A stretch of DNA of 36,648 nt from a virus (IMGVR_UViG_2675903330_000001), one strand, 5' to 3'; positions 9,062 to 27,561 are shown, counted from the first letter of the stretch. The notes: generated by a model not told the origin, from the sequence alone. Numbers and translations are program-made.

Positions 9062-9090
9062 TTTCTCCAAATTAAAGTGAATGTTCACCT

Positions 9091-9693
9091 TTATTTAGAG
9101 GACTTACATTTTATAGGAAAAAGTTCTCCATCGTCAACCGACATAAAGAACTCTGCCTTAATCCCGTACTTCTTCAACCGTGAATAGTATGTACCCCGAC
9201 TTATATCAACCTTGCGCAGCACTTCGAAGAAGGACTTAGGATCGTTGTAATAGTGGCTATATCGCACGTTAGCGAGTTCTACAAACAATTCCCTTGTATC
9301 ACCATAGCCTTTCTTAAAAGCCTCGTTACGATAGCGTGTAATAGCGTGATTCAATCTCTTCTGTTTCAACACTTCTCGGATCGGCTTCCACTGCAACCGA
9401 TAGATAGGACCGTCATCAATGCGATAATAACGCTTGATATCAAAATCAAACCAATCTCGGACTCTCCGAAACTCTGTATGTGATGTTCTATGCTTCTTAA
9501 AGAAGTTGTGAACGTCTGTATAACCATTATCGCGGTAAAATTCTATTAAAATCTCTTTCGCTTCCTCACGGCTAAACCCAGATGTTGTGTAGTCGGTCTT
9601 CTTGTGATGGTGCTTAACTGGCAAACGATATTCATGATCGGTACAAGACAAGGCTAATTCTAATTCATCTCTTTCTTGCTGATTAATTAGCAT
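9091..9693 (-). CDS. hypothetical HTH-containing protein (200 aa)
   Basis: Transcribed divergently from terL; C-terminal [23 protein letters not shown] is HTH-like; an internally repeated basic/aromatic segment. Confidence 0.45.
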
Positions 9694-9780
9694 ACACCCT
9701 CCTTAAATCTTAATACCCGTATTTATCAAAAAATCAACAATTTAATAAATACCTTCATATTTCGTAATGAGGGTAATTAC

Positions 9781-11685
9781 ATGAAACTAATTTCTAATAA
9801 GGCCAAATTAAAAAAGATTCTTAAAAATGCAGCCAAATATATTACGCCACCGCCTAAACTCCTTCCATCGGAATGGTGCGAATCTAATATGGTGCTGGTA
9901 GATGGTCCTCAAGCTGGGGATAAAGTTAAATTGCTGTCATTCCAGAAAGGTATGATTGATGCTCCTTTCCTTGAGAACAAGAAAAAGTATGTTCTGATGA
10001 CCAGTGCGCAGATCGGAAAGACTACCATCCTGAACGGTATCCTGTTTAACCAGATGGCTAACGATCCATGCAATATGATTATCGGACAATCAACCGCTAA
10101 AGAAATGTCTCAATATCTCGCTGGTAAGATCCGACCGTCTATCGAAGCATGTGATGCATTAAAAGACGTGGTTACAGACAAGAATGATCGCAATTCTGTT
10201 AATAACAACAATCAGCTCCAGCTCAAATCAAACCACTTCCTTTATATGGTATCGCTTACTAGTCCATCAACCCTGCGCGGTAAGACTGCAAAGGTCGGAC
10301 TACTAGACGAAATCGATGCTGCTACAGCCTCAGAAGAAGGTGATCCGGTGGCACTGGCTGCTAACCGTTTAACTACCTTTGGCGATGAAGGCCGATTAGT
10401 CGTATCCAGTACCCCGACCAGTAAGCTGGGAAGCATTAACCAGCAATGGTTATCAAGTGATATGCGTATGTTTTTTGTTCCGTGTCCTCATTGCGGGGAA
10501 CACCAGGTGATCGAGTGGGAAAACGTTCAATTTGAATGGCGTAACATCGATGGTAAGAACTTACCCGATCCTGATACCGCTCGTTATATTTGCCCCCACT
10601 GTAAGAACGCATGGACAGAAGGGGAACGAATCAGGGCAGTAGCACAAGGCGAGTGGAGAGCAACCCGTGAAAGTGAAGTAGCCGGATTCTGGATTAGCCG
10701 TCTGTATTCACCTTTCAGCACGATCCGCGCTTGTGTGGTTGATTTTAGTCATGCGTGGCAATCCTTTGATTTACAATCATTTTATAACACCGTGTTAGGC
10801 AAAGTATACGACGATCAGGACACGGCAGTAGAAGCAAATGAACTGGAACAACTCAAAACAGATGTTTCTATCGAGAATATCCCTGATGACGTGATTTTCT
10901 TGTGTGCGGGTACTGACCAGCAATTAGATCGCGCAGAAACTACAATCATGGGCGTGGCAAAGGATAAGATTTATATTCTGGATCATCGCAGCTTTTACGA
11001 TCATAACTGTGAACGATATGAATCCCCTGTATGGGATAGATTAATCAACTTCCATAAAACCAAATTTACTACTGTATCTGGTGATCGTGTTCCTATGCTC
11101 GCCAGCTTCCTTGATACATCGAACGGTCGATTCACTCAAGCTGGATACCGTATTTGCGGCAAGTGGAAGAACTTACACGCTATCAAAGGTAGTTCTGCTG
11201 GTAACGCTCCGATCATTCCGGTTAAACCTACCCGCACAGGTGGTCATGAATTGCTTATGTTGGGTGTTAATGTGGGTAAAACTGCATTTCGTGAAATGTT
11301 GGCTAGGAACCTGAAAGATAATCCTCATATTGGCTTAGAAATATCAGACACCGTTCCTGATGATTATCTCGATCAGCTTTTAAGTGAATCTGTCAAGCGT
11401 ACTACTACTGGCGTGAGATGGGTAAAGAACCCAGGCGTTAGGAACGAGGCGCTCGACTGCGCCGTGTATGCTACAGCGGCTTCTCGCTACGTCCTTTCAA
11501 AAATGTCATGGGATAAACTCATTGCAATGAAAGACAGCTTAAACAGCGTTAAAGAAGAACCCGTAAAAGCTCCTGAATCGCAATCTGACGAGCAAATCGA
11601 AGAAACTAAGCCAATCACACGACCGCAACGTCAAAACATCGCCAGACGCCCAAATAGAGGCCGTAGCTGGGTAACATCGTTCTAA
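9781..11685 (+). CDS. terminase large subunit, lambda gpA-like
   Basis: GAGGG RBS; Walker A-like [10 protein letters not shown]; paired Cys motifs CPHCGEHQ ... CPHCKNAW; 634 aa; lies upstream of the portal gene. Confidence 0.8.
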
Positions 11686-11757
11686 TAACTCGCCGTCCTT
11701 CGGGACGGCTTACTCCTAAATATTGTTAATCCAATAACAATTAAATAAGGGGTAATT

Positions 11758-12255
11758 ATGAGTTTAGAACTAATTCCCTTAGTAATTCGTAAAGGCGAAA
11801 AAATCACGCTGGCGAATGAAGAGGGTGTAACAATTCAGGTAGGAAATAATAATAAAGGTATCATTTATCAGGTTGATGATACTCCGGCTAATCACGAGAT
11901 TAAAACCTTAGATTTTGCCGATGGTAAATATACCATCGTAATAACTTTGGATGAAGAACTAGTGTCAATGCAGCAATTGACTGTATTGCCCGTCTTTGCA
12001 AAACAATCCAAAAAACAGTATCTGCGGGAAACTATCGCCTTAATCGAGCAAGTTATTTTCGCCCGTTTATCTGGGGACGAAGCCGCATTATCTCAAATGA
12101 CCGTGAAAGGAAATACTTTCGCCTATGAGTCATTGGCTGTTCTCCAGACTCTAAAAGTCGATTATGAACGTCAACTGTCTAAATTAATTCAAGCCGAACG
12201 ACGTAAACAGGGAATTAGCCCGATTAAAAATATCAAATTACGTCTTACGCGATAA
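11758..12255 (+). CDS. hypothetical protein (165 aa) between terminase and portal
   Basis: Intact ORF with RBS; position is analogous to lambda gpW but no motif recognised. Confidence 0.45.
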   Translation: MSLELIPLVIRKGEKITLANEEGVTIQVGNNNKGIIYQVDDTPANHEIKTLDFADGKYTIVITLDEELVSMQQLTVLPVFAKQSKKQYLRETIALIEQVIFARLSGDEAALSQMTVKGNTFAYESLAVLQTLKVDYERQLSKLIQAERRKQGISPIKNIKLRLTR

Positions 12256-12265
12256 GGGGTAAATC

Positions 12266-13777
12266 ATGTTTAATCTTTTTCGACGCAAAAAGGCGGTAGA
12301 AACTCCAGTTAAAACTAATCACCGCCAGCAACAACAAAAAATCTTTATCGACAAACAAGTAGAAAAATTCCAGAAAGATTTGTCTAAGCGTTCTTTGGGC
12401 TTAGTCGGTGATCGAATTGATGGACAGCTTCAACAAGATACTATCACCGGAACGTTCAATAAGGCTCTCAAATCGAACGGTAAGCGCCTTTATGATCAGG
12501 GTCGTACTCTGGCCTTAAACACTTCCGTAGGCAGTCGATACACGCAATACATCACCGATATGGTGGTAGGTACTGGCCTAGATCCGAAGCCGTCAATCGT
12601 TAAATCAAATGGCAAACTTGATAGCGCACTGAATAAGCAGATCGAGAATGCTTTCTGGAAGTGGGCGCAGAATGCTAAACGCTTCTCTCGTAACGGTCGC
12701 TTTAACTTCCGTGAATTGCTGGTAATGGCTGAACGTGAGCGCGTTATGGGTGGTGAGTGCTTCATAGTTTTAACCAAAGAAAACAATGAGTTAAATGTTT
12801 CTATCCTGTCTGCTGATAAGTGCGACTGGACGCTCAACCGTGAAGTAAGCAAAGAACGTGCGATCTATCAGGGGATCGAGTATGACGTAGAAACAATGAA
12901 GCCCGTAGCATACTGGTTTCGTAAAGTCAACCTACTGACTCAGACTTACACAGGTGATAACTATCGTGTAGAAGCATCGCAAGTATGCCATTACTATCAA
13001 CCACTTACCGCCGAATCCCTGCGTGGTGTGACTGACTTCCTGCCAGTGATTAAGGATATCGCACATCAAGACGCATTCCGCGAAACTGCAATTATCCAGA
13101 AACGCATTGCAGCTAGCTCTATGGGCTTTATCGAGCGTCCGAAAGATTCTGGTGACGATTTTGATACTGGTGAAGATGATGAACAATATCAAGCGCCGGA
13201 AGTAGTACAGGATTTTGCACCTGGTACTATTCAGGAATTACCGGAAGGGGCAACGATCAAGAGCATCCAGGCGACGCAAAGCGGTGATGACTTTAACAGC
13301 TTCAATGATGCGATGTTTACTAGCGTATCAATGGGCTTAGGCGTGTTTAAACAGGGCTTGACTGGTGACACTAGCCAGATCAACTACTCAGCCGCACGTT
13401 TCGGTGAATTAACCCAGCGCACACGAGTTAAAGCACTGCAAAACAAATTAATTGAAACAGTGGTATCGCCAATTTTCGAAGCATATCTACGCCATTATTC
13501 CGCTCGTGGTATTGTTCCGATTCGTATTACTGCAATTCCGCATATTATCGATAACACTACTATTATTCGTCCGCGTTTTGAATCCGTCGATCCAATTAAA
13601 GACGTAAACGCCGAGATTGCTTTAATTGATAAAGGACTTAAATCACGTACTGCCGTTATATTAGAACGTGGTGATGACCCTGAAAAAGTATTCTCAGAGA
13701 TTCAAGCCGAAAAGAGCGCACTAAATATTATCGTTAATGGCGAGGGTGAAGAAAAAAATTCCCCAGCCGATCCCTAA
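12266..13777 (+). CDS. portal protein, lambda gpB family
   Basis: 503 aa; position after terL; overall resemblance to the lambda-family portal; acidic mid-region. Confidence 0.7.
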   Translation: MFNLFRRKKAVETPVKTNHRQQQQKIFIDKQVEKFQKDLSKRSLGLVGDRIDGQLQQDTITGTFNKALKSNGKRLYDQGRTLALNTSVGSRYTQYITDMVVGTGLDPKPSIVKSNGKLDSALNKQIENAFWKWAQNAKRFSRNGRFNFRELLVMAERERVMGGECFIVLTKENNELNVSILSADKCDWTLNREVSKERAIYQGIEYDVETMKPVAYWFRKVNLLTQTYTGDNYRVEASQVCHYYQPLTAESLRGVTDFLPVIKDIAHQDAFRETAIIQKRIAASSMGFIERPKDSGDDFDTGEDDEQYQAPEVVQDFAPGTIQELPEGATIKSIQATQSGDDFNSFNDAMFTSVSMGLGVFKQGLTGDTSQINYSAARFGELTQRTRVKALQNKLIETVVSPIFEAYLRHYSARGIVPIRITAIPHIIDNTTIIRPRFESVDPIKDVNAEIALIDKGLKSRTAVILERGDDPEKVFSEIQAEKSALNIIVNGEGEEKNSPADP

Positions 13778-13822
13778 TAACCAACGGGGGCGCAATGCCC
13801 CCAATTAATTAAAGGTGATTAA

Positions 13823-15826
13823 ATGCTTAAATTTCGCCGCGATCTTAACGGTTACGGTGGAGTTATTAATGAAGGGCATAACGATCAATACGAATTTGAA
13901 ATTGCTTTCTCAAGTACACAGCCTTATCAGCGCCAATTTTGGGATGAGCAAAATCAAGAAATGGTGGTATTAGATGAAATTCTGGTACATACACCGGAAG
14001 CGGTTGATCTGTCTCGTCTGAATAATAACGCTCCGTTGCTGTTTAATCATAATTTCGATAATCACATTGGTGTCGTTTGTAACGCTCGAATCGATGCGGA
14101 TAACGTAGGTCGTGCTCTGGTTAAATTCTCTAAGCATGGCACTTTGGCTAATGATATTCGCAATAAAGTCATTGAAGGTACGATGGAAAAAATTTCTGTC
14201 GGTTATGACATTAAAGAATATCACATCGATTATGCCAAAGGACAATTGATTGTTACTAAGTGGGCACCCTATGAACTCTCATTTGTCACCGTTCCCGCAG
14301 ACGATACGGTCGGTTTAAATCGCTCTCTAAATACTATCACAGTTAATTTGGAGGCTAAACGCGATATGACTAAAGAACAAATCGAAGAAATCAAAGAAGA
14401 ACAAGAATCCGCTCAGGTTGAAGAAACTCCGGTAGAAGAAATTAAAGAACCGGAAGTTGAAGAAACTCAAGAGCGCCAAGTTGAAGAGAATAAAGAAGAT
14501 GAAAATCTCGAAGACGGAAAAGACGCTGAACATCCTGAAAGTGTTGATGATGATAGTTCAACTGTTCGGGAAACAGAAGAAGTAAAAGAAGAACGTGAAG
14601 CCGCTCCGGTTGAAGAAGAAAAAATCGAGGAAGTGGCTGAACGTTCCGAAGAAGACGAATTAGAAATTCGCGAAATTGCACGCGAACTAAATATTGACGA
14701 CGAAGAATTGAAACGCGCATTGGCAATTAAAGACATGACGCCGGAAGCATTCCGCACTAAGGCACTAAATAATCTCGTCAATGCTCAACGTAATAACGAA
14801 CAACAAATTAAGGACTCTAAAATGGAAAAAACTTTTGACCTGAACAACGTAATTCGCTCTCTGGTAGATGGTGAAGCTCTGGGTGCTCACGAAGCCGAGT
14901 TTTCTGCGATGGCTGCTACTGCAACTATGCAGCGTGGTCGTGCTGCTCGTGGTGGCTCTGTATTCGTTCCGGCTGCTGCTATGCGTGCTGCTGCTGCTGG
15001 TAACACCAAAGCTGACCTGACTGCTATCACCGACGAAAAACTGCTGACTGAATCCTATGTTGAAATGCTGCTGCCGGAATCCGTTCTGGGTCGTCTGGGT
15101 GTGACCGTTCTGTCTGGCCTGAATGCTCCGGTTGCTGTTCCGAAAATGACTGCTTCCAGCGTTGAATCTTTCGGCTTCGTTGATGAAAACGGTGCTGCAC
15201 CGGAAGGTAAAGCCGAATTTGCTAACGTGAAAATGGCTCCTAAAACTTTCGCAGGTGGCAACCCGATCAGCCGTCAGTCTCTGAAAACCGTTCCGGGCAT
15301 CGCTACCCTGATCACTGATCACATTAACAAAGCTGTTCGTATCAAACTGGAACAACTGATTCTGTCTGATAAAGAAAATGCTCGCGGTCCGGCTGGTCTG
15401 GTTAAACAACTGGTAGACGGTGGTCGCGTTACTAAGAAAGCCGCTTTCAGCTACAAAGACTTCCTGAAAGAAATTGCAGCACTGACCGACGCTGGCGTTC
15501 CTGCTCAGGCGATCAAGTTTGCAATGAGCGGTGCAACTGCTGCTGAACTGGAATCTACCCTGAAAGATAACGGCGTTTCCGGTTATATCATCGAAAACGG
15601 CAAACTGGCTGGTTACGATGTAGTTACTTCTGGCGTTATTCCGGCAGACCACATCGTTCTGGGTGACTTCTCCGGTATTACTATCGGTGAGTGGGGCGGT
15701 CTGGAACTGGATATGGACGACACTACCTACCGTGCACAGTCTGCAATCGTTCCGCGTATCTGGGTAGACCTGGATTATGTTGTTACTCAGCCGGAAGCTC
15801 TGAAAGTTCTTCACATCTCCGAATGA
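13823..15826 (+). CDS. prohead protease - scaffold-like linker - major capsid protein (HK97 fold) fusion
   Basis: N-terminus matches the HK97-type prohead protease pattern (PLLFNHNFDNHIGVV ... ISVGYD ... ELSFVTVPADD); residues about 190-300 are a Glu-rich coiled-coil; the C-terminal about 330 aa is capsid-like with highly optimised codons. Confidence 0.75.
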   Translation: MLKFRRDLNGYGGVINEGHNDQYEFEIAFSSTQPYQRQFWDEQNQEMVVLDEILVHTPEAVDLSRLNNNAPLLFNHNFDNHIGVVCNARIDADNVGRALVKFSKHGTLANDIRNKVIEGTMEKISVGYDIKEYHIDYAKGQLIVTKWAPYELSFVTVPADDTVGLNRSLNTITVNLEAKRDMTKEQIEEIKEEQESAQVEETPVEEIKEPEVEETQERQVEENKEDENLEDGKDAEHPESVDDDSSTVRETEEVKEEREAAPVEEEKIEEVAERSEEDELEIREIARELNIDDEELKRALAIKDMTPEAFRTKALNNLVNAQRNNEQQIKDSKMEKTFDLNNVIRSLVDGEALGAHEAEFSAMAATATMQRGRAARGGSVFVPAAAMRAAAAGNTKADLTAITDEKLLTESYVEMLLPESVLGRLGVTVLSGLNAPVAVPKMTASSVESFGFVDENGAAPEGKAEFANVKMAPKTFAGGNPISRQSLKTVPGIATLITDHINKAVRIKLEQLILSDKENARGPAGLVKQLVDGGRVTKKAAFSYKDFLKEIAALTDAGVPAQAIKFAMSGATAAELESTLKDNGVSGYIIENGKLAGYDVVTSGVIPADHIVLGDFSGITIGEWGGLELDMDDTTYRAQSAIVPRIWVDLDYVVTQPEALKVLHISE

Positions 15827-15960
15827 ACTAACGTAGAACCATCTGAACCTTCCCCCGAATCGGGGGAAGAAAATCTGATTCCTAAACAGGAAGAAGATTC
15901 CCAGACGGTTACGGCGAAAGCCACAGTTAAAAAACAACGTAAAACTAAAGAATAATAATT

Positions 15961-15989
15961 AGCCCTGCCTTAATGGTGGGGCTTTTTTG
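15961..15989 (+). terminator. putative terminator after the capsid gene
   Basis: Imperfect AGCCC ... GGGCT hairpin followed by T6. Confidence 0.4.
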
Positions 15990-16018
15990 TATGTAAATAC
16001 TCCATAAAGGGGGTAACT

Positions 16019-16309
16019 ATGTTCAAATTATCAGAATCACAATTAAATCGAATGTTTAAGAGTGCTCCTGTATTTTCGGTGGAAGGTGGTAAATCAATTC
16101 GTGCTTATCATGAAATTACTACTACCGACGAACAAGGGGTAATGACAGAAACCGAATTTCTATTTTGTCGTGAGGGAGACTTAAAGCAAGGTGATATTGT
16201 CACAGTAGAAAACCAGCGTTTTAAAGTTCAATACATTAAGCGCAATGGTGATAATACCACTGATTGCTTTATTGCTCGTGCAGGGGGTACACATGCTCGC
16301 TACCGTTAA
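16019..16309 (+). CDS. putative head completion / head-tail adaptor protein (96 aa)
   Basis: Small gene directly after the capsid gene; assignment from position and size only. Confidence 0.4.
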   Translation: MFKLSESQLNRMFKSAPVFSVEGGKSIRAYHEITTTDEQGVMTETEFLFCREGDLKQGDIVTVENQRFKVQYIKRNGDNTTDCFIARAGGTHARYR

Positions 16310-16715
16310 TAATATGCCGAGACTGAAAATCAAACGCGCCTTGCAAGATATTATCGAACAAGATTTAGGTCTGGCTTTAAACGTAGAACAAACTCAGCAA
16401 GGCTTTAGTGATGATGTGGTTTGTTGGATTACTGGCATGAATGAAACTTATACGCGTGTTCGTGGTGGTAATGCAATGCAAGCTGAATGCGTTATCGAAA
16501 TGCAGTTGTATTCTCAGAATCATGAAACCAAAATTCATGAGGGTATTTGCCAGATAATCCAGATTCAGCCGGATAATCCACGTTTTAAAGATTTGGGCTT
16601 CTCTATTTCAGATATCACTCCAGTAGCTTCTAATACCGATTATGACGATGATTCTAGTGATGGGGGTATCGTTGGGACACTTAGCCTTAAATTTTCTTAT
16701 CTAGCGCGTTTTTAA
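16293..16715 (+). CDS. putative head-tail joining / tail completion protein (140 aa)
   Basis: ATG at 16293 with AGGGGG RBS, overlapping the upstream gene by 17 nt; assignment from position only. Confidence 0.4.
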   Translation: MLATVNNMPRLKIKRALQDIIEQDLGLALNVEQTQQGFSDDVVCWITGMNETYTRVRGGNAMQAECVIEMQLYSQNHETKIHEGICQIIQIQPDNPRFKDLGFSISDITPVASNTDYDDDSSDGGIVGTLSLKFSYLARF

Positions 16716-16724
16716 GGGGTAATA

Positions 16725-17558
16725 ATGAATATTACACAAGATAACTTAGACATTTTCACGGGGTCGCATGTTGAAGTCTCCGTGTCTACTATGGTGGATA
16801 ACCAGCCGGACTTTTTCGATCCTGCATTTAGTCCTATCGAGAACATCGCAGCATTTCCGACGATAACCGAATCCACAGAGATCCAGACGTTAGAAGAATA
16901 TGACCATGATGTTACTGGTAAGTTGGCTGGCTATCGTAAACTTGAATCAACAACACTCACAGTAAACCGTGTTCTGGATGATGAACATCAAGCAATGTTG
17001 ATGAAAGCGGTAGAGGATAAAACCCCTTTACGCTTCCGTATGTTCTATGTTGTGAACTCTGGCTATAGTGCTGCTAACACAGGATACTACGTCATTTTTG
17101 ATGCATACGTCACATCACACAAAACCCGTGGTAGCGATAACAAAGTTACTACCATCGAATTTAAATTAGATCCTGATGGTGGGATTCTCGACCGTGGTAT
17201 TGCCACCGAAGGCCGGATCTTACGTCAAGGTGATTTTGGTTTGGGCGCTGGTGTACATCCATTCACAGGTCCGATTGATAGCGAAGCATTAGCCGGAAAC
17301 CGTTTCGTAACTTATCAGGGATCGAGCGTATCTAATCCATTTAGTGCTGATACTTCACTAATTCACGTTCAACCTAATGAAGATGGTGGATGGCAATTAA
17401 CTTGCACCGCTTCCGGCGCACCACGTTTACGAGTTCGCACAGTCCAGAAAGACGGTAATTCTGGATGGGTGAAAGTGTATTCCACAGAAGAAAAACCGAC
17501 ACCAGCCGAGATTGAAGCCGTTTCTATCCATGACCGGATCGACTTCGGGGAATACTGA
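16725..17558 (+). CDS. putative tail-associated protein (277 aa), C-terminal motif shared with the tail fiber
   Basis: Weak by-eye resemblance to lambda gpV-type tube proteins; the C-terminal EEKPTPAEIEAVS mirrors DKPTPAEIGAYS in the fiber gene 17632-21156. Confidence 0.35.
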   Translation: MNITQDNLDIFTGSHVEVSVSTMVDNQPDFFDPAFSPIENIAAFPTITESTEIQTLEEYDHDVTGKLAGYRKLESTTLTVNRVLDDEHQAMLMKAVEDKTPLRFRMFYVVNSGYSAANTGYYVIFDAYVTSHKTRGSDNKVTTIEFKLDPDGGILDRGIATEGRILRQGDFGLGAGVHPFTGPIDSEALAGNRFVTYQGSSVSNPFSADTSLIHVQPNEDGGWQLTCTASGAPRLRVRTVQKDGNSGWVKVYSTEEKPTPAEIEAVSIHDRIDFGEY

Positions 17559-17631
17559 TTGCTTCTCTAAATAAAACATGACGCGGGAGGTTAACGCCTC
17601 CCTTATTCCTGTTTTATAGTGAGGTGATTCG

Positions 17632-20600
17632 ATGCAGTCGATCCAATTTAAACGAACAAATGTTTCTGGCAAAAAACCAACGCCGGAACAATTACAGGTC
17701 GGTGAGGTAGCAATCAACCTTAAAGACCATGTTATTTTCACCAAAGACCGAGATCATGAAGTAGTTCAAATCTCTGTTTCTCCTGAAACTCACGCGGCAC
17801 TAGAATCTAAAGTTGATGCTAACAAACAAGAATTGGATAGCACAATTGCAGTAAATGACCGCAATATTCACGCTAAAGTAGATGAAATTAAACAAACTAC
17901 TGATGCAACCATCGCAGCAAATCACGCAGAAATTAACAATAAAGTTGATGTAATTAAACGCGAAACCGACGCGACAATCGAGGCCAATAAAAATAAAGCT
18001 GCTTCCGATCTTGCTGGTGTTAAAGCTGAATTGTCGGATACCATCAACGCTAATAAAAATGCGGCTGCTGTAGCAACTCAGGAACTGGACACCCGCATCA
18101 ATAAAAAAGTTGATGATATTAAATCCCGTACCGATGCAACCATCGTAAGCAATCACAAAGCAATCAATGACAAAGTTGATTTGATTAAGGCAGAAACTGA
18201 CCGCACTATCGCAGCAAATCACGCCTATGCGGAAAATCAGTTAACTGACACCTACAATAACCTTACTGGTGTGATTGCAGCCAATAAGCAAGAGGCAGCG
18301 GATAACGTCGCAGCATTAACCCGTGATGTTGAAGCCAAAAATACAGCAATTCATAGCAAAGTTGACAATAACAAGTCTTACACTGATTCTGAATTGGCAC
18401 GCTTAGAAAGCCGTATTGATGCAGCCGATGGATCAAGTGATGGTAAGTACATCAAAAAGCACGTAAACACTTGCACTGATGGCTATTTGCTGTCTAAGAC
18501 CGCAAACCCTTTTGATGATCCGAGTGCTCTTAATCTTGATTACTTTGGTGCATTTCGCATGAATGACCTGGCGGGTCATATTGCAATGATCTTGCATGTT
18601 CCGCACCCATCCGGCGTTAATCATGCTCGTGGTTTTGAGTTCACTTATGGGTCTAATCCGGTTCATACGGTAAGAACATACGGCTATGATGAATTGGGAC
18701 ATTTGGCATATTCTCACCGCATGTATCATGAAGGTGATAAACCTACTCCGGCTGAAATTGGCGCATATTCGAAAGCAGAAATTGACCGACTGTTCCAGAA
18801 GACGCTTAATTTTGGTATCGAGGGTGGTTGGTTTAAACTAGGCACTTTGACAATGCCACAACAACACGGTCGCACGGCTAAGATCCGTTTGGTTGGTGGT
18901 AACGGTTATAACGTAGGACATAATGGACAAGCCAATATTATCGAATTGGTGATTCGATGCGGCAACAATAGCCCGAAAGGTGTTGTATTCAATGCGTATT
19001 ATACTATTTGGCATTATGAACAACATTTTTGCGCTATTCCAACCGATGGCGACAATTACGATCTTTACGCTTACTACGGTGCACATACAGGATTTGTTTT
19101 AGCAGAATATCAAGTTTCTTCCGGTGGTGTTTCTTTAAACCTGTTGGATACTCCTGAATACCTGGGCGGTGAAAAACCTGTTGCAGATGAAATTTTTGAT
19201 GCTCTTAACATTTCATCGTTCAATAACTTTAGCAACCGTGGAACGTTAAATTTTGGTGGAAACCATCAAGGTCAATATGATATTGAGCATTTAAACGAAC
19301 AACCGACAAATGCTAAAAAGATGTTGCGTCGCTTCCGTAGTTGTGCTCCTGCCACTATCTGGCATGAGACAGTTGATGATAACAAGTATCGTCTTGCTAC
19401 TGGATACGAAGATACAAATCAGGAATTATTGCTGTCAGCAACATCCGGGTTACATATCAAGAAATTAACATTGGATGGCGGTGTTACTGGAAATTCTGGT
19501 ATTGATATTCGTCGAGGACCAAATGAAGCAAGCCATTTTAATTTCATGGATTATCGCACTGGACAAGATGTTCGTAATGGCTGGTTTGGCTTCGGTGATG
19601 GAACAACCAAAGATTTTATTTGGTGGAACGATAACGGTCAAAACTCGATAAACCTGATTGAAGACGGTGAATTACATATTACTGGCGGTAGAGGCCAGAA
19701 AATTGTAATGAATAGCGAAGTGGCATTATCTGAAAATGCTCGTTTGGCTGTCAAAGGTGGTAACTATGGTTTAATCCTTCGTAATGATGGTTCTAGCTTC
19801 CATATTCTTACTACCGATTTAAAAGATTCCTTTGGGACGTGGAATACTCGTAGACCATTTAGTTATGATTTCGCCGAAGGTGGATTAGATCTAGGTGGCA
19901 CAGCTACCGCACGCTGTTTACATCTGGGAATTGATGGTAGCACCCGCATCGAAGATAATATGGTGTTTAGATCAGGGTCTCGTCAGTCAATGGACTATAT
20001 TGAATTAATCCATTGGGGTAACAGTAATACAGGACGCAATAACGTTTTGAGTATGCGAGATTCCAAAGGTTTCTTGGCTGAATTTGAACGCGTGGGGGGT
20101 ACTAACGGCGTTAAAACCAGATTCTTTGGCGAAACATTCACTGATGGTACATTATACCTAAATCAGATGAATAATAGCTCTGAACGATTCTCTATTAATA
20201 ATTGGGGAAATTCAGAAGTTGGTCGCGCGGCAGTGATGGAAGTCGGTGATTCCAAAGGTTATCACTTCTATACTGAACGTAGGACAGATAACAGTTTGAT
20301 GTTTGATGTTGCTGGCGCTTTTACTGTGCATGGACCTTCCGGGATTACTATCAAAAACTCTGCTGGTGCTCGCCACGTCTGGTTTAGAGATGATAGCGAT
20401 ACGGAAAAGGCTGTTATCTGGGCTACAGATGAGGGTATTTTACATATTCGCAATAACCACGGTGGACAATTTACACATCACTTCCAGGGCGCGATGATTA
20501 AACTGGAAGGGCGTGTTCCTTATGCCGCAGATCAAGGACTTATCCGTGGTGAGGTTTCTGGTGGTGCATATGTTGCATGGAGAGACCGACCTGCTGGTTT

Positions 20601-21156
20601 GTTGGTTGACTGTCAACAAAGCGTTGATAGTGCTCATGCTATTTGGAAAGCGGTTGATTGGGGGCGTAACTACATCGCTGCTATGGACGTTCATTGTCCC
20701 GGTGATAGTAATAATACTGCGGCAGCGGTTCTTCATGTTCAGGGTGCTGATTATCAATTCCATGCAAGTGGAGAATTTCATGCCACTGGTAACGGAAACT
20801 TTAACGATGTTTATATTCGTTCCGATCGTCGTCTGAAAATTAATGTTGAAGATTACGAAGAAAATGCGGTGGATAAGGTAAATAAACTCAAAGTTAAAAC
20901 CTACGATAAAGTTAAATCTCTTAATGACCGAGAAGTTATAGGTCATGAGATTGGTATTATCGCACAGGATTTACAAGAGGTATTACCGGAAGCTGTTAAA
21001 ACCGCAAAAATTGGTGGTTTTGATAACCCAGAAGAAATTTTAACAATTTCAAACTCCGCAGTGAACGCGCTTTTAATTAAAGCGGTCCAAGAAATGAGCG
21101 AAGAAAATAAACTTCTTCGTGAACGTCTTGCTGCAATTGAAGCTAAATTAGGGTAA
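17632..21156 (+). CDS. side (L-shaped-type) tail fiber with C-terminal intramolecular chaperone domain
   Basis: 1174 aa; N-terminal about 21-aa repeats (KVD-IK--TDATI-AN); C-terminus SDRRLKINVEDYEENAVDKVNKLKVKTYD ... LLRERLAAIEAKLG is typical of the self-cleaving endosialidase-type chaperone (peptidase S74). Confidence 0.75.
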   Translation: MQSIQFKRTNVSGKKPTPEQLQVGEVAINLKDHVIFTKDRDHEVVQISVSPETHAALESKVDANKQELDSTIAVNDRNIHAKVDEIKQTTDATIAANHAEINNKVDVIKRETDATIEANKNKAASDLAGVKAELSDTINANKNAAAVATQELDTRINKKVDDIKSRTDATIVSNHKAINDKVDLIKAETDRTIAANHAYAENQLTDTYNNLTGVIAANKQEAADNVAALTRDVEAKNTAIHSKVDNNKSYTDSELARLESRIDAADGSSDGKYIKKHVNTCTDGYLLSKTANPFDDPSALNLDYFGAFRMNDLAGHIAMILHVPHPSGVNHARGFEFTYGSNPVHTVRTYGYDELGHLAYSHRMYHEGDKPTPAEIGAYSKAEIDRLFQKTLNFGIEGGWFKLGTLTMPQQHGRTAKIRLVGGNGYNVGHNGQANIIELVIRCGNNSPKGVVFNAYYTIWHYEQHFCAIPTDGDNYDLYAYYGAHTGFVLAEYQVSSGGVSLNLLDTPEYLGGEKPVADEIFDALNISSFNNFSNRGTLNFGGNHQGQYDIEHLNEQPTNAKKMLRRFRSCAPATIWHETVDDNKYRLATGYEDTNQELLLSATSGLHIKKLTLDGGVTGNSGIDIRRGPNEASHFNFMDYRTGQDVRNGWFGFGDGTTKDFIWWNDNGQNSINLIEDGELHITGGRGQKIVMNSEVALSENARLAVKGGNYGLILRNDGSSFHILTTDLKDSFGTWNTRRPFSYDFAEGGLDLGGTATARCLHLGIDGSTRIEDNMVFRSGSRQSMDYIELIHWGNSNTGRNNVLSMRDSKGFLAEFERVGGTNGVKTRFFGETFTDGTLYLNQMNNSSERFSINNWGNSEVGRAAVMEVGDSKGYHFYTERRTDNSLMFDVAGAFTVHGPSGITIKNSAGARHVWFRDDSDTEKAVIWATDEGILHIRNNHGGQFTHHFQGAMIKLEGRVPYAADQGLIRGEVSGGAYVAWRDRPAGLLVDCQQSVDSAHAIWKAVDWGRNYIAAMDVHCPGDSNNTAAAVLHVQGADYQFHASGEFHATGNGNFNDVYIRSDRRLKINVEDYEENAVDKVNKLKVKTYDKVKSLNDREVIGHEIGIIAQDLQEVLPEAVKTAKIGGFDNPEEILTISNSAVNALLIKAVQEMSEENKLLRERLAAIEAKLG

Positions 21157-21194
21157 TTGGAAAGCGGGGAGAAATCTCCGCTAAGGATTCTTAT

Positions 21195-21491
21195 ATGGGA
21201 TATTGGGTAAGTAGTGAAATTAATACTAAAATCGATGCTTTAAAATGGCATGTATTTGATATTCCTAACGGCTATGGTACTGCTCGTGCTGGTGTCGCTG
21301 TAATGCGTCATAATGCTGGTGGTGGGTGGTCTGATGCACATATTAACGTAGATGGTTTGACCGTTGCTCGTCGTCGTGGTGGGACCAATTGGGGATCTAC
21401 TATAAATTCGTTTGTTCCTGCTGGCTGCACCGTCTCCTTTGGTTTAGGGGGTGAAGGTGGTGTTGAATATTTTAAATTCATGGAGTTTTAA
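21195..21491 (+). CDS. small protein, paralog 1 of a tandem triplet (98 aa)
   Basis: AAGGA RBS; shares W-x-FDIPNG(Y/W), Gly-rich loops and a C-terminal YFKF-type motif with the next two genes. Confidence 0.6.
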   Translation: MGYWVSSEINTKIDALKWHVFDIPNGYGTARAGVAVMRHNAGGGWSDAHINVDGLTVARRRGGTNWGSTINSFVPAGCTVSFGLGGEGGVEYFKFMEF

Positions 21492-21493
21492 TT

Positions 21494-21799
21494 ATGGCTG
21501 GATGGATAAATCAAAGAATGTCAAACGCTATTAGTATTTGGGCTAATGGTGGATATTTTGATATCCCCAACGGCTGGGTTACTGATTCATGCGGAATTGT
21601 TTTTGCTCATATGGAAGCCATTAACGGTGCTGGTGATCTTGATTCTGAATTGGCTGTAAATGGATTGATTGAATCAGGTCATCATGCTGGTGATGCTGGG
21701 AGTTGGGGCGCTAGTTCTTTAGTTGGCGCTGGTGCTACCGTTAGCTTTACATTGGGTAAAGGTAGTTTGCATTATTTTAAATTCAGGAGAATGCACTAA
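21494..21799 (+). CDS. small protein, paralog 2 of a tandem triplet (101 aa)
   Basis: GGAG RBS; starts 3 nt after the upstream stop; same motifs. Confidence 0.6.
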   Translation: MAGWINQRMSNAISIWANGGYFDIPNGWVTDSCGIVFAHMEAINGAGDLDSELAVNGLIESGHHAGDAGSWGASSLVGAGATVSFTLGKGSLHYFKFRRMH

Positions 21800-22101
21800 T
21801 GGCATTTTGGGTAGATGGCGCTTTGGGGAATAGGGCGGGTAAAGCAAATCAAGGATGGTTTGATATTCCTAACGGTTGGACAGCCGACGCTTTCGGGACT
21901 ATTTCATTCTGTGCTCATTCTTCCGGTGGTGGCGGTGGTGACTCTGAATTGCTTATTCATGGTTTGTGTGTTTCTGGAAGCCATAAGGGTCATGATTGGG
22001 GACAGATTCATTCTTGTATTGCACCGCAAGGGGCGGTAATTACCGTTAGCACAAATAGGGGGATCGCTCATCTTCGTTATAGACGTTTGAGCAACCGCTA
22101 A
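21799..22101 (+). CDS. small protein, paralog 3 of a tandem triplet (100 aa)
   Basis: AGGAGA RBS; start overlaps the upstream stop (TAATG); same motifs, with a GGGGG loop. Confidence 0.6.
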   Translation: MAFWVDGALGNRAGKANQGWFDIPNGWTADAFGTISFCAHSSGGGGGDSELLIHGLCVSGSHKGHDWGQIHSCIAPQGAVITVSTNRGIAHLRYRRLSNR

Positions 22102-22155
22102 ATAAATAGAATTACGGGTATGTGCCCTATTGTTTAAAATAGAAGGAAAAGAATA

Positions 22156-22626
22156 ATGACTACTAAATTTGATATTTTTTCTGGTGGCCTCGTTGGTCTG
22201 TTTCTGCATGAAGAAGTAACTAACACCGATCTTGACAGTGAAAGCTATCTGGAAATTCCAGAATGTGCGGCTTTCCCGGAAACTGGTGTAGAACGTTCTA
22301 CTGTCGATGTTCCTAACTTCGGTGGTCCGTATAACCGTAAGCTGGTTGGTCGTATGTCTGTACCGGATATCGAACTTTCGATCAACTACATGCCGGGTAA
22401 CGAAGTACACGAAAAACTGATTAAAGCAACCGAAGACGGTAAGCGCGTACAGATTAAAATTGCTTACTACATCGACGCTACGAAAAAATCTGGTGTACAT
22501 ATCGCTTATAACGGCTTCCTGTCTAAAACTACCATGACTGGTGGTGAGGATGCTGTAGTAGGCCGTACCTTCACCTTTGTAGTAGATGGTGCTCCGGTTA
22601 AACAAGCTGTTTTCCAGAAACTCTAA
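22156..22626 (+). CDS. major tail tube protein
   Basis: 156 aa, immediately upstream of the G/GT chaperone pair and the tape measure gene; optimal codon usage; terminator-like hairpin after the stop. Confidence 0.6.
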   Translation: MTTKFDIFSGGLVGLFLHEEVTNTDLDSESYLEIPECAAFPETGVERSTVDVPNFGGPYNRKLVGRMSVPDIELSINYMPGNEVHEKLIKATEDGKRVQIKIAYYIDATKKSGVHIAYNGFLSKTTMTGGEDAVVGRTFTFVVDGAPVKQAVFQKL

Positions 22627-22707
22627 TATTATCTAGCCATCCTTCGGGGTGGCTTTTTGTTTCCAATTCTAAATAAACATATCTAATTAACTTAAGAGGA
22701 AACAATA

Positions 22708-23016
22708 ATGAATATTAATGAAATGTTAGCCGCACTTTCTCCGAAACGCGAATCTCTGACCATCGGTGGATTTACTTTCTATGCTCGCCCTATGTCAGTA
22801 AAAGAATTTAACGAACATGTTTTCAATACCGATAAAGAAGACCGTGATGAACGTTCTATTCTTCGTTGTATTGAAGATGAAGACGGTAAGCCAGTATTTG
22901 AATCTATTGAACAAGTTAAGGCACTGTATACTAACGTCCGCAGTGAATTAATCGGTTTGGTTGCTCAAGCGTCATTGATGCAAGATCCGGCGGTAATTGA
23001 AAACGAGGTAAAGTAA
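22708..23016 (+). CDS. tail assembly chaperone (gpG-like)
   Basis: 102-aa gene between the tube and tape measure genes. Confidence 0.6.
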   Translation: MNINEMLAALSPKRESLTIGGFTFYARPMSVKEFNEHVFNTDKEDRDERSILRCIEDEDGKPVFESIEQVKALYTNVRSELIGLVAQASLMQDPAVIENEVK

Positions 23017-23390
23017 TAAACCCGCTTCTGAATTTCTATTTCCGGCAAATGATGAGATCGGGGCTTAGTAAAGATGAAATGGATAATATGCCAATCACTC
23101 TATTTTGGAAATTATACATTTTCGACACCTACTTAGAACCACAAAGCCCCGCGTTTCATGATATGCAGAATGCGATGTTGCAATATTCCATGTATATGAC
23201 GTCGCAAGGAATGACACGCGAAACTGCAAAGAAACTCAAGCCTAGCCAATTCCAATTAATTAGAGAAGAAAAACTCTTTAAAACTAAAGAAGAACTGGAA
23301 GAAATTGCACGCAAGAAAGAAGAAGAACGTAAAGCGGCAATGCTGAACATGTTTGATCCATCTTTGCTTGAGAAACTCAGAAGCGGTTAA
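23001..23390 (+). CDS. tail assembly chaperone T-frame (putative -1 frameshift extension giving a G-T fusion)
   Basis: The -1 frame is open from 23001, overlapping the last 5 codons of the G frame; the first ATG (23049) has no RBS; GUA-AAG-UAA offers a Lys slip site next to the stop. Confidence 0.45.
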   Translation, partial: KRGKVINPLLNFYFRQMMRSGLSKDEMDNMPITLFWKLYIFDTYLEPQSPAFHDMQNAMLQYSMYMTSQGMTRETAKKLKPSQFQLIREEKLFKTKEELEEIARKKEEERKAAMLNMFDPSLLEKLRSG

Positions 23391-23401: not shown

Positions 23402-25831
23402 ATGACAAAACATATAGTAACAATAGAAGGGGATAATAAAGGGCTAAAGAGAAGTACCAATGAAGCCGCCGACCTTCTCGATAGTTTGTCTGAAAAGGCA
23501 AGTAATATTGATTTTGGTGGTGGCTTATCTGGTCTGACTGGATCTCTTCGTGGGATCGCTGGCTCTGCTGGTTTAGCTGCTGGTGGTATCGGCTTAGTTG
23601 CGACCGCAGTGGTTGCAGCCGCTAAAGCTGGCGCGGAATACGTTAAACAATATTCAGAAGTATCTAAGGCGACCGGACTCTCGATTGAATCCCTTCAAAG
23701 ACTGGAAAAGGAATTTTCTGGTACTGGCCTAACAGTTGAAAAATTCGGTGATATCAACAAAGACACCTTAGATAAGATGGGTGATGCATGGGCTAACGGT
23801 GGTGGTATTGCTGATGACTTAGAATCGGTTGGCCTTAAGTTAGAAAACTATGCTCACTTCATGACTGATCCGCAAGGTGGTATGAAAGCGGCGATCCAAG
23901 TGTTCTATGACATGAAGAAAGCCGGAAAATCAATGGCTGAAATCAAGTTCATGATGGAATCTTTAGCCAGTGATTCAAGCCATATGACCAGCCAGCTTGA
24001 GAAATATAATACTGCTCAAGAGGCGATGATCGCTATTCAGAATCAATCTGTTAACGTCACCGAAGAAAACGCTAAAAAATATGATAAATTTTCTCAAAAT
24101 ATCAATAAGCTGGAAAATAACCTGAAAGGTGTCGGTATGACCATTTCTGGTCCGCTGGTTGATAGTTTAAACTGGTTATTTGACTGGTTTAATATTGATT
24201 GGGAAAAGAGTTCTCTATTCAGGGCATTAGATCGACTGAATAAAGAAGGCAAGACCGCAACTGGCGGTATTCTTAACGCCAACCATAAAGACGCTCAAAA
24301 AATTATTGACAAGTACAATAAAGAAAAGCGTTGGAATAATCTGGCAGATTGGGAAAAGGCCGCGATCCGTGGTGCTGGTGTCGATCCTCGTACTGCTGGC
24401 TTTGATGTTGAAGGATTTAAGAAACGTTTTGGTGATTCTTATAAGAAAAATGGCTCTCTGATTGTTGTCGATAACGGGGAACATCTAACCCGCAAGGCAG
24501 ATCCTAACCGTGATTTGACTATACCAAATAAACCAGTAAGACCAGAATCATTGGGTAAGTCTGGTAATGAGAAGAAAGCCGAAGAAGAAGCACGCAAGAA
24601 AGCGGAAGAGGCAGCTAAAAAGGCTAAGGAAGCCGCAGAAAAAGCACAGAAAGCACGCGAGGATGCAATCAAGCGACTGAATGCACTTGATGTTAAATTG
24701 CAAGGGCAAGTTGCAGCGTCTATCACTTCTCAAAATAGCCAGTTGCAAAACAGCTTAAAAGATGTGAACGACGCGTTAGCTCTGGGCTTAATCTCTCAGG
24801 AAGACGCAGCCGCGAAACGCCAGGCGCTAATCGATCAGAATACTGAAAACGTTTATAAAATGATGTTGGGTGCTGATCCGATTGATGCTCTGAATGCTTT
24901 AACACAATTGCAACAAATCAGGGACAACGAGCTAGAAAGCCATAAACGGTTACTTGATGGTAAAGCTATCTCCTACGAAGAATATATGCGTCGTGTGAAC
25001 GATACCGAGCAAAACTATTCTCAGATTGAAAATTCTTTACAGGGAATGGATGGTTATAAAACCAATCAATTAACTAGTGGTTATGATTATCAAGACTCAA
25101 ATAATCCGTTTGCTAAATTTAATGCAATCGATAAAGAGAAATCGGATGCTGAACAAGATTATAAGACCGATAAACTCAAGATTGATGGGATCACCGATCC
25201 GGCTAAACGGATGGAAGCATTAGAAAAACTCAATGAAAACCATCAAAAACGAATGGCTGCAATTGAGAAGAAATATGCTGATGCTCGCCAGTCAATAGCC
25301 GATGATATGTACGGCGGTTTTGCTGCTGCAATGACTCTCTTCGGGCAGGAAAACACTAAAGCTATGCAGATGGCTTTCAATGCTCATAAAGCATTCTCTA
25401 TCGGACAAGCGACGGTGAACATGTGGACGGCTGCTACCGATGCATGGAACGATCCGACCAACGTCACCACAGGTCAAAAAATCGCGGCTGCTGCATTGGC
25501 TGTTTCTCAGAACATGGGGAACATCGCAAACATCAAGTCTACTAACGTTAGCGGTATGGCTCATGATGGTATTGATAACATCCCTCGTGAGGGTACATGG
25601 TTGCTTGATAAGGGTGAACGAGTAGTTGATCAGCGTACTAACGGTGATTTGAAAGACTTCCTTGCTGCTCAAAAATCAGGTGGTGGTAACTCTCAGCCGA
25701 TTGAAGTTAATGCGCCTTTGAACATTAACGGCAACGTTAATAGCTCAGACAAGATGGTCATGGATGCTATCAAACGTCACGCTAAGTTTGTTGCTCAGGC
25801 GATAGAAGACGTTCAGCGTCGTAAGATGTAA
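23402..25831 (+). CDS. tail tape measure protein
   Basis: 809 aa; Gly/Ala-rich N-terminal membrane-like segment; long coiled-coil Lys/Glu/Ala-rich centre; position after G/GT. Confidence 0.8.
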   Translation: MTKHIVTIEGDNKGLKRSTNEAADLLDSLSEKASNIDFGGGLSGLTGSLRGIAGSAGLAAGGIGLVATAVVAAAKAGAEYVKQYSEVSKATGLSIESLQRLEKEFSGTGLTVEKFGDINKDTLDKMGDAWANGGGIADDLESVGLKLENYAHFMTDPQGGMKAAIQVFYDMKKAGKSMAEIKFMMESLASDSSHMTSQLEKYNTAQEAMIAIQNQSVNVTEENAKKYDKFSQNINKLENNLKGVGMTISGPLVDSLNWLFDWFNIDWEKSSLFRALDRLNKEGKTATGGILNANHKDAQKIIDKYNKEKRWNNLADWEKAAIRGAGVDPRTAGFDVEGFKKRFGDSYKKNGSLIVVDNGEHLTRKADPNRDLTIPNKPVRPESLGKSGNEKKAEEEARKKAEEAAKKAKEAAEKAQKAREDAIKRLNALDVKLQGQVAASITSQNSQLQNSLKDVNDALALGLISQEDAAAKRQALIDQNTENVYKMMLGADPIDALNALTQLQQIRDNELESHKRLLDGKAISYEEYMRRVNDTEQNYSQIENSLQGMDGYKTNQLTSGYDYQDSNNPFAKFNAIDKEKSDAEQDYKTDKLKIDGITDPAKRMEALEKLNENHQKRMAAIEKKYADARQSIADDMYGGFAAAMTLFGQENTKAMQMAFNAHKAFSIGQATVNMWTAATDAWNDPTNVTTGQKIAAAALAVSQNMGNIANIKSTNVSGMAHDGIDNIPREGTWLLDKGERVVDQRTNGDLKDFLAAQKSGGGNSQPIEVNAPLNINGNVNSSDKMVMDAIKRHAKFVAQAIEDVQRRKM

Positions 25832-25881: not shown

Positions 25882-26442
25882 ATGTTCAAATCCAAGAATA
25901 TTAAAATCACAGATTTTACTCTTAAATCAAAACAGCCTTTCTTCAAGGCGCAATCTATTTCTGGTAAGTTCCAGCGTCGCTTTACTGGCATTCATTTTTA
26001 TGAAGCAGAATTTACAGCTAATTTCATGGCTCAGGATATTAACGAAGTAAAAGAATTTGTAGCACGTCACCTTTTTGGTCGTCCTTTTAGTGTGCCACTG
26101 TCTTACTTTTCAAAATATACAGGCGATGTACGCCAGATGGTTACGGCTGCTGCTGGTACTGCTCGCGGTGGGCGTAAGGTAAGACTATCCAACTTCACCG
26201 GAACACTGAAAGCAGGAACTATCATCCAGTTTGAGAACCACAAGAAAATCTACACGATCACCGAAGATGTGAAATCAGGTGGTGAAATGAAACTCTTCCC
26301 TAACTTGCGTCAGAACGTCCTGGCGGGTGAGGTGATCAAGTATCAGAACGTAGAATGTGAATTTCTTCTCAAAACTGAAAACATCGATTGGAAGATCGCC
26401 CAGATTGGCAAGATGAAATTCGAATTAGTGGAGAATGTATAA
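25882..26442 (+). CDS. minor tail protein (gpM/distal-tail-like position)
   Basis: 186 aa, first gene after the tape measure; assignment by position. Confidence 0.5.
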   Translation: MFKSKNIKITDFTLKSKQPFFKAQSISGKFQRRFTGIHFYEAEFTANFMAQDINEVKEFVARHLFGRPFSVPLSYFSKYTGDVRQMVTAAAGTARGGRKVRLSNFTGTLKAGTIIQFENHKKIYTITEDVKSGGEMKLFPNLRQNVLAGEVIKYQNVECEFLLKTENIDWKIAQIGKMKFELVENV

Positions 26443-27141: not shown

Positions 27142-27561
27142 ATGCTAAAAACTAGGCTTATCACCGATTACATCAATTCTTTAATAGGTCAGGAGTTCGT
27201 TCAGGGGGAGAATGATTGCAATCTAATTGCATGTAAGATCATCGATATTCTCGCTGGTACTGACCTATATAATTCTCTTTATAAAAAATATTCAACTAAA
27301 GAAGAAGGCTTGAAAATCTGCAAAGAATTAAGCGGATACACAAATATCCTTCAACCAATTAAGAAACATTTCAAATTAGTCACTGATGATTTACAGGACG
27401 GCGACTTACTGGTCACAGCCCACAAATTAGGAAACCGCAAATATTATTCCGTAGTTCCTCATTATTCCGGTTATGGCCTCGTTGAAGAAGATGGTATCTG
27501 GATGACCATTCCTGTTTCAGACATTGACTATGAACAAGTTTATAGATTCGGGGGTGAATAA
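27142..27561 (+). CDS. minor tail protein, gpK-like (possible NlpC/P60-type peptidase domain)
   Basis: GGAGG 8 nt upstream of the ATG at 27142; Cys (ENDCNL) and His (VVPHYSG) spaced as in C40 peptidases; position before the J-like gene. Confidence 0.45.
   Translation: MLKTRLITDYINSLIGQEFVQGENDCNLIACKIIDILAGTDLYNSLYKKYSTKEEGLKICKELSGYTNILQPIKKHFKLVTDDLQDGDLLVTAHKLGNRKYYSVVPHYSGYGLVEEDGIWMTIPVSDIDYEQVYRFGGE

Follow-up and report, generated by a model that had tools for sequence, protein, structure and literature searches.

The DNA analysed here, IMGVR_UViG_2675903330_000001, is a viral stretch of 36,648 nucleotides (hereafter the window, with positions counted from its first letter) and corresponds to a temperate siphovirus prophage of Escherichia coli. 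Two adjacent genes of its tail region, both on the + strand, are the subject of this work. The first one (16725-17558), preceded by a Shine-Dalgarno sequence AAGGGG located 6 nt 5' of the start codon, encodes a protein of 277 amino acids (aa), hereafter p277, which combines a tail-tube domain with a fibre-type C-terminal domain and a gp36-type tail, and which is proposed to be a fibre anchor. The second one (17632-21156) encodes a gp37-type side fibre of 1174 aa that includes a predicted self-cleaving chaperone. Both open reading frames (ORFs) are present as described by the original prediction, an earlier reading of this DNA that had drawn attention to a KPTPAEI motif common to the two proteins, and both peptides quoted there were found. 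In the public records consulted, p277 is labelled 'hypothetical protein' or 'Phage tail protein'.

The N-terminal domain of p277 (residues 1-160; 16725-17204, +) has a tail-tube fold. Indeed, the structural model obtained with AlphaFold2 (AF2) displays a beta-sandwich and a long hairpin, and its top Foldseek match is full-length lambda gpV. The protein also matches phrog_158 (E 4.5e-9), the match with PHROGs being confined to the tube domain. The same family is matched by the 156-aa product of the canonical tail tube gene of the window (22156-22626, +; E 3.7e-20), which moreover matches Pfam Phage_TTP_12 (E 7e-5). None of the Pfam tube families matches p277 above its cut-off, the best being Phage_tail_2 (E 0.16, 12.4 bits for a cut-off of 23.8), and p277 has no match in NCBIfam; a scan of seven proteins against NCBIfam gave zero matches. 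Thus, p277 is a paralog of the tail-tube gene at 22156 with a lambda gpV-like N-terminal domain, a relationship that was missed by the earlier reading. It does not occupy the position of the major tube protein, since it is the 156-aa gene that adjoins the chaperone genes, lying directly 5' of G and T, and since the fibre gene separates p277 from them.

The tube domain is followed by a conserved Gly-rich segment (residues 161-200; 17205-17324, +; GRILRQGDFGLGAG...GNRFVT) in which G163, G172, G174, G176, G182, D185, G191, N192 and R193 are invariant among 51 homologs. As these residues are invariant, yet the segment has a predicted local distance difference test score (pLDDT) below 50 in the monomer model, it would fold only in the oligomer. 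The residues after the Gly-rich stretch are modelled as a beta-rich domain. They correspond to a fibre module (residues 201-266; 17325-17522, +) ending with W.KVYSTEEKPTPAEIEAV (motif at 17472-17522) and then to the terminal peptide SIHDRIDFGEY (residues 267-277; 17523-17555, +), which constitutes the gp36-type tail.

The gene located just upstream of p277 (16293-16715, +) had been counted among the head-completion genes. Its product, a 140-aa protein without family matches whose database homologs have 139-141 aa, was modelled with a mean pLDDT of 77.7, and Foldseek comparison of this model with the PDB retrieves lambda gpU (3fzb, 8iyd), T5 p142 and other neck/terminator chains (E 5e-6 to 2e-4). 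This protein is thus predicted to be a gpU-like tail terminator and not a head-completion protein. Therefore, the fibre module is placed between the terminator and tube genes, so that the location originally given for it holds on the tube side but not on the head side. A terminator role for p277 itself was ruled out, as a separate gpU-fold protein is encoded at 16293-16715 and as p277 finds its best fold matches among tube proteins. The mechanical ORF call that starts the terminator gene at 16245 is probably 16 codons too long. Further downstream, the fibre gene lies, as had been claimed, 5' of the block that comprises the tube gene, the genes of the chaperones G and T (22708-23390) and that of the 809-aa tape measure (23402-25831).

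The fibre matches phrog_1699 (long tail fiber distal subunit) with an E value of 2e-135. The suggested comparison with tail-fibre families identifies a gp37-type fibre, adjacent to a protein whose end is of gp36 type. All the parts of the fibre gene described here are on the + strand. Residues 1-47 (17632-17772) form a gp37-type N-terminal joint domain (MQSIQFKRT..GKKPTPEQLQVGEVAINLKDHVIFTKD). They are followed by a rod rich in Ala, Asn, Asp, Thr and Lys (residues 48-265; 17773-18426), which has a weak apolipoprotein-like match and would, to judge from composition alone, probably be helical; no tandem DNA repeats were found in this N-terminal rod. An internal fibre module (residues 304-382; 18541-18777) ends with RMYHEGDKPTPAEIGAYS (motif at 18718-18771). 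The gp37-/gp34-like shaft and tip (residues 383-1063; 18778-20820) include a Pfam Gp34_trimer domain at residues 644-745, and the PDB sequence matches of the shaft are T4 gp34 fragments and the distal subunit 6f45. Lastly, residues 1064-1174 (20821-21153) are a Peptidase_S74 (PF13884) intramolecular chaperone, recognized at residues 1064-1123 with 55.9 bits for a cut-off of 22. The sequence SDRRLK starts at Ser1064, where autocleavage would take place, in agreement with the self-cleaving chaperone domain that had been announced.

The distal rod of T4 is (gp36)3-(gp37)3 (PMC5537660; bioRxiv 10.64898/2026.03.06.709160), and the two proteins of the window resemble the facing ends of these two subunits. 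The family profile of p277 (residues 245-277) aligns with residues 464-496, i.e. the exact C-terminus, of the gp36 homolog of the virulent T-even phage G37-3 (Krischvirus), with an hhalign probability of 90.6% and an E value of 1.3e-6, and BLASTP finds 13 of 28 residues identical between the two C-termini. This homolog ends with ...YELYHEGHKPTPAEVGAVPLNAVIDFGTF, its final residues being ...AVIDFGTF, and T4 gp36 ends with ...DSVQDFGYY. The Pfam model PF03903 (Phage_T4_gp36) recognizes the G37-3 homolog (27.6 bits for a cut-off of 26), T4 gp36 (178) and a 1209-aa relative of p277 from Serratia (28.8). On the other side, the N-terminus of the fibre has 39% identity over 64 aa with the N-terminus of T4 gp37 (residues 4-61; E 1e-15), and no other block of the protein is as conserved as its first 40 residues (mean identity 0.80 vs 0.29-0.71 elsewhere, among 37 family members). 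As p277 has a gp36-like end and the fibre a gp37-like start, each of the two genes encodes one half of a gp36-gp37-type joint. The connector gene is located directly 5' of the fibre gene in T4, in G37-3 and in the window alike. However, T4 gp36 is a fibre segment that hangs from gp35 and gp34 on a myovirus baseplate, whereas the gp36-type end is carried here by a siphovirus tube-fold domain. The peptide KKPTPEQL, which had been counted together with the KPTPAEI motif, sits inside the conserved gp37-type N-terminal domain of the fibre, where its T4 counterpart is TRPAASVL. It is thus an unrelated element and was discarded as a third copy of the motif.

The motif itself occurs at only two sites in the six-frame translation of the whole window (17493-17513 and 18739-18759), and an exact 7-mer common to p277 and the fibre was obtained in 12 of 20,000 composition-preserving shuffles. 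Of the 7 codons of the motif, 5 have a different third base in the two copies, and the DNA on either side of the copies cannot be aligned, which rules out a recent DNA duplication and agrees with the conservation at the protein level that had been put forward. The p277 family profile aligns over residues 197-269 with residues 304-382 of the fibre (hhalign probability 74%, E 2.7e-5). Therefore, the two proteins have in common a module of about 75 residues and not seven residues alone. In p277, this module ends with W.KVY..EKPTPAEI.AV, followed by DRIDFGEY. It displays 28% identity over 86 aa, a weak alignment, with the C-terminus of a T-even (Krischvirus) gp34 homolog, and the p277 profile matches the motif at residues 1209-1243 of the 1281 residues of a long-tail-fibre proximal subunit (PDB 9f4a; E 0.026).

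In T4 gp34, the corresponding motif is FVQVFDGGNPPQPSDIGA, at about residues 1233-1250 according to our own count; it makes up the last strand of domain P5 as well as the connector to the C-terminal cap (PMC5537660). P5 is a trimeric beta-prism (residues 1146-1238) and, according to its authors, a likely trimerisation nucleus (PMC5537660). A motif of the p277 type (aromatic-x-V-Y/F, a few residues, then K/N-P-T/P-x-x-D/E-I-G-A) thus closes gp34 P5 too, although the significant alignment of p277 with T4 gp34 is limited to the motif region (hhalign E 0.0065), the longer 86-aa stretch being found with the Krischvirus homolog. Homology of the whole C-terminal domain of p277 to P5 was rejected, as the motif region alone aligns.

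Four copies of the motif are found in the T-even gp36 homolog and three in p277 homologs of 465-482 aa, and other large fibre proteins include the fibre module 4-8 times. Both the motif and the terminal peptide are retained in every full-length ortholog aligned, from five genera (Escherichia, Salmonella, Providencia, Edwardsiella and Proteus), and the terminal peptide is found at the extreme C-terminus of all homologs, including those of 465-698 aa. The motif is thus a generic end-of-module signature of proteins of the long-tail-fibre type. Because it is repeated many times in fibre proteins, the internal copy in the fibre is no attachment site; it is the end of another copy of the p277-type module, and the element relevant to attachment is the whole C-terminus of p277, i.e. 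the motif plus DRIDFGEY. Among the two roles that had been considered for the shared element, trimerisation is consistent with the motif closing gp34 P5, whereas attachment cannot be ascribed to the generic repeat inside the fibre.

The association between the two genes is conserved. From 45 IMG/VR loci and further loci that were read, about 40 distinct combinations of a p277-type C-terminus with a fibre N-terminus were obtained. Among the p277-type genes examined, all the intact ones encode the motif and, after it, a short tail that ends with D(F/L)G plus two residues (e.g. IDFGEY, IDLGTF, IDFGLE), and a fibre gene with a gp37-type N-terminus is located 40-82 bp 3' of each of them where the contig continues. 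The longer relatives (465-698 aa) carry additional modules, inserted after the first motif and before the terminal peptide. Furthermore, fused versions exist. The 1209-aa protein mentioned above, encoded by a Serratia prophage that has the same synteny, starts with the tube domain, includes the region passing the Pfam gp36 model and ends with ...NKPTAAAISAVAINDTFDEGTF, its tail being of the p277 type; the next gene encodes an S74 fibre of 490 aa whose start is of gp37 type. A prophage of Rouxiella encodes one protein of 971 aa that extends from the tube domain to a fibre knob, and the tube gene is directly 3'. A profile search of 1.84 billion representatives retrieved 275 relatives. Among the best 150 of these, 99 have at least 560 aa and match p277 over their N-terminal ~240 residues, and 32 of these 99 have an S74-type motif near their end; the members that could be named come from Serratia, Rouxiella, Kluyvera and Pantoea. 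These fusions of tube and fibre are a strong argument for the tube-fold domain as the proximal fibre anchor. The original prediction had asked whether the 277-aa protein is a tail component; its tube paralogy, the conserved pairing and the fusions point to a tail component that is linked to the fibre.

Among 50,697 phage records, DCP80 (PQ671644.1), an Escherichia phage of 141 kb classed in the Straboviridae, is the only one with a p277 relative. Its positions 1-18560 are a siphovirus-type module that encodes a gpA-type terminase, a p277-like protein of 698 aa, a fibre, a tube protein and a tape measure, and this record may be a chimeric assembly. A scan of IMG/VR with a long fusion protein (P0103) gave no relatives. 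A tblastn search of the same phage records with its N-terminus found the tube-domain region in DCP80 alone, ten Klebsiella phage records matching this query only over a 50-residue fibre repeat at its end.

The relationship of the fibre with T-even phages is also visible at the DNA level. A segment of about 3.4 kb (18718-22117), which comprises the distal two thirds of the fibre gene and three small ORFs, has about 85% nucleotide identity to G37-3, and shorter parts of it match many other T4-like phages. The fibre and the G37-3 protein at the gp37 position are 76% identical over residues 285-1174 and 36% identical over the N-terminal 71 residues. The G37-3 homolog lacks the rod, i.e. about 215 extra residues, and carries the same module and motif as residues 304-382 of the fibre. 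The DNA match indicates that a fibre cassette was exchanged between a temperate siphovirus and T-even phages.

The way in which siphophages hold their side fibres has been resolved only recently and in two cases, the p132 collar on the p140 ring in T5 and the N-terminal Stf collar in Ur-lambda. T5 p140 arose by duplication of the tube gene; its ring separates the last tube ring from the distal tail protein and supports the side-fibre collar (PMC10038345). According to the same authors, other siphoviruses must hold their side fibres differently (PMC10038345). Like p277, p140 is a duplicate of the tube gene beside the major tube protein, and the arrangement proposed here would function as p140/p132 does. 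However, p140 has a double tube domain and is an undecorated, pseudo-hexameric trimer, whereas the tube domain of p277 is single (about 160 aa) and is followed by a C-terminal domain of its own. Moreover, a separate 12-mer Ig-like collar, p132, holds the L-shaped fibre pb1 in T5, whereas p277 carries its own fibre module and gp36-type tail; general family scans of the tail genes submitted did not turn up any p132-like collar protein. The N-terminus of T5 pb1 is not known to be related to the gp37-type N-terminus.

Ur-lambda has a lambda-like siphovirus tail whose trimeric side fibres, Stf, are attached at the junction between the tube and the distal tail protein (PMC12617516). A J-type central fibre is found both there and in the window. 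However, the N-termini of lambda Stf form a 12-chain collar round the tube and stf is located 3' of J, whereas the fibre of the window has a gp37-type N-terminus, is encoded between the terminator and tube genes and has a dedicated tube paralog. The PDB sequence search carried out with the fibre gave no chain named lambda side fibre among the matches listed, and no description of a side fibre anchored by a tube domain was found in the literature searched. The locus points to a third solution, in which a tube paralog carries the fibre or a fibre socket.

The folds and homologies of p277 and of the fibre, the pairing of their genes and the existence of fused versions are all observed, and p277, a tube paralog, most likely forms the socket of the adjacent gp37-like side fibre on the tail. 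As the N-terminal 160 residues have the tube fold, they would assemble as one ring of the tail tube. The C-terminal modules would trimerise like the homologous beta-prism modules of gp34, so that the hexamer would offer two trimeric sockets, and the N-terminus of the fibre would dock on the terminal-peptide region of p277 as gp37 does on gp36. We infer the physical contact as well as the stoichiometry and the position of the ring. If this socket exists, there is a reasonable likelihood that the ring is next to the distal tail protein, since T5 p140 and the Ur-lambda Stf collar are located there, since the minor tube paralogs of contractile systems are baseplate-proximal and since the fibre would be too short from the neck. 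More generally, we lean, though only slightly, towards the existence of a widespread class of siphophage side fibres whose proximal end would be a tail-tube subunit inserted in the tube wall, six chains giving two trimeric fibres. In the lineage of the window, this fibre would have been split at the gp36/gp37-type joint, thus allowing the exchange of the distal cassette with virulent T-even myoviruses.

Various points weigh against this proposal. The contact between p277 and the fibre is deduced, and a hexameric ring feeding trimeric fibres would require a symmetry mismatch. The structure prediction that had been suggested as a check recovers the tube fold of p277, but over its C-terminal half the AF2 model has low-to-moderate confidence (pLDDT 34-83). 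The similarity between p277 and gp36 is limited to the last ~33 residues, and the core domain of PF03903 was not found in p277, even at E values up to 10. T4 gp36 has only its terminal DFGYY, an end of the ...DFG-x-(Y/F) type, in common with p277 and does not have the KPT motif. The search of the PDB by sequence did not find any structure of the gp36-gp37 joint, the gp36 homolog having no meaningful match. Finally, gene order by itself does not tell whether the ring is located at the tip or at the neck of the tail.

This last point bears on the position of the ring. With the same joint between p277 and the fibre, the ring could be head-proximal, between the last tube ring and the terminator, and the fibre would then be of the neck or whisker type. 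Such a position would fit with a p277 gene that directly follows the terminator gene and with the case of T4, where gp3, a tube-like protein, occupies the neck end of the tail. However, the resolved side-fibre anchors that were compared, i.e. the collars of T5 (p140/p132) and of Ur-lambda (Stf), are at the junction between the tube and the distal tail protein (PMC10038345, PMC12617516), and the minor tube paralogs T4 gp54, Pvc5 and the baseplate tube protein of Pa193 are all baseplate-proximal. Furthermore, the mature fibre, at about 85-90 nm, would be too short to extend from the neck beyond the tail of about 120 nm that is expected from the 809-aa tape measure, both lengths being our own rough estimates. 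A ring at the neck is thus considered unlikely, even if it keeps some weight.

Two other explanations separate p277 from the attachment of the fibre. A tube fold with an extra C-terminal domain is a classical architecture, known from lambda gpV with its C-terminal immunoglobulin (Ig) domain, SPP1 gp17.1* and T5 pb6, and lambda gpV is precisely the top Foldseek match of p277. Accordingly, p277 might be a tube subunit decorated with an adhesin-like domain in the manner of lambda gpV or SPP1 gp17.1*, either scattered along the tube or major, with the fibre attached elsewhere. However, these three proteins are major tube proteins with adhesion domains of the Ig or fibronectin type III (FN3) type, whereas p277 is a minor paralog whose fibre module extends to a whole fibre in relatives. 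The gene that adjoins G and T is that of the 156-aa paralog, not p277, and it is this type of paralog that bears an Ig-like decoration in relatives (251 aa in L003). Besides, some p277 relatives are fused to 300-1300 fibre residues that include S74 chaperones, which would be implausible on each tube subunit, and this explanation leaves both the gp36-type terminal peptide and the invariable gp37-type neighbour unaccounted for; it is judged improbable. The shared motif might also have no specific functional meaning, being either a common fibre signature or a recombination hotspot for module swaps. Indeed, it is widespread and repeated in many fibre proteins, and the blastn match to T-even phages (about 85% nucleotide identity over the distal two thirds of the fibre gene) begins at 18718, only 21 nt 5' of the codons for KPT. 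However, the protein identity with the T-even homolog is 45-65% before as well as after the motif and does not increase until residue ~530, where the high-identity block begins, so that the motif was ruled out as a T-even recombination breakpoint. In addition, the link between the two genes also rests on the terminal peptide, the gp37-type N-terminus, synteny and fusions, and an absence of link is considered very improbable.

There are about 100 sequence clusters with the kind of anchorage by a tube paralog that is proposed for p277. The clusters that were traced come from Enterobacterales genomes, and no isolated phage is found except one odd record. The joint between gp36 and gp37 of T4 thus emerges as a portable connector present outside T-even phages. 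Such a portable joint is useful to predict which anchors and fibres match and could guide host-range engineering, with gp37-type fibres mounted on a siphovirus chassis.

The segment 15800-18800, from capsid to fibre, has 94-97% identity in the best-matching E. coli chromosomes and, counting matches of any level, is found in 54 of the 5,426 complete genomes. In the E. coli strain EC416, a related prophage is inserted within hicB and encodes a serine recombinase. This prophage is informative about the three small ORFs located 3' of the fibre gene in the window (21195-22101). These ORFs (21195-21491, 21494-21799 and 21799-22101) are paralogous, encode proteins of about 100 aa that are G-rich and have FDIPNGW and YFKF in common, and display a strong GC skew. 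They have no Pfam, PHROG or NCBIfam match, and a homolog search with the first one retrieved hypothetical proteins only. The same trio is located 3' of the gene at the gp37 position in G37-3. The EC416 prophage lacks this trio, and the fibre gene of that prophage diverges from nt 20134 onward. As the trio is missing where the tip of the EC416 fibre diverges, it therefore seems to travel with the fibre tip, and it may be a tip-associated factor.

The other structural genes of the window encode, in this order, the large terminase (9781-11685), a head-tail joining protein (11758-12255), the portal (12266-13777), a protease/capsid fusion of 667 aa (13823-15826; phrog_617 and phrog_4523) and an FII-like protein of 96 aa (16019-16309) that precedes the terminator. 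The fusion carries protease or scaffold and major capsid regions on one chain, and its relatives have Peptidase_S78 and Phage_capsid. Beyond the tape measure are found the distal tail protein (25882-26442), then other tip proteins, and the J-like central fibre (27561-31337). In one subgroup of the related prophages (within the IMG/VR loci L020-L038), an extra ORF of 168 aa (at about 13100-13650) lies between the tube and G chaperone genes and is absent from the window. The region 5' of the structural genes (3001-7000) has a low GC content (0.34-0.44 vs about 0.42-0.50 elsewhere). A weak terminator-like site, the stem-loop GGGAGGTTAACGCCTCCC (17585-17602, +), is located between the p277 and fibre genes, and stronger terminator-like hairpins are found 3' of the capsid gene (15961-15983) and 3' of the tube gene (22635-22654). 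All three stem-loops are G+C-rich and have T tails, and they may be attenuators that set the ratios of the structural proteins.

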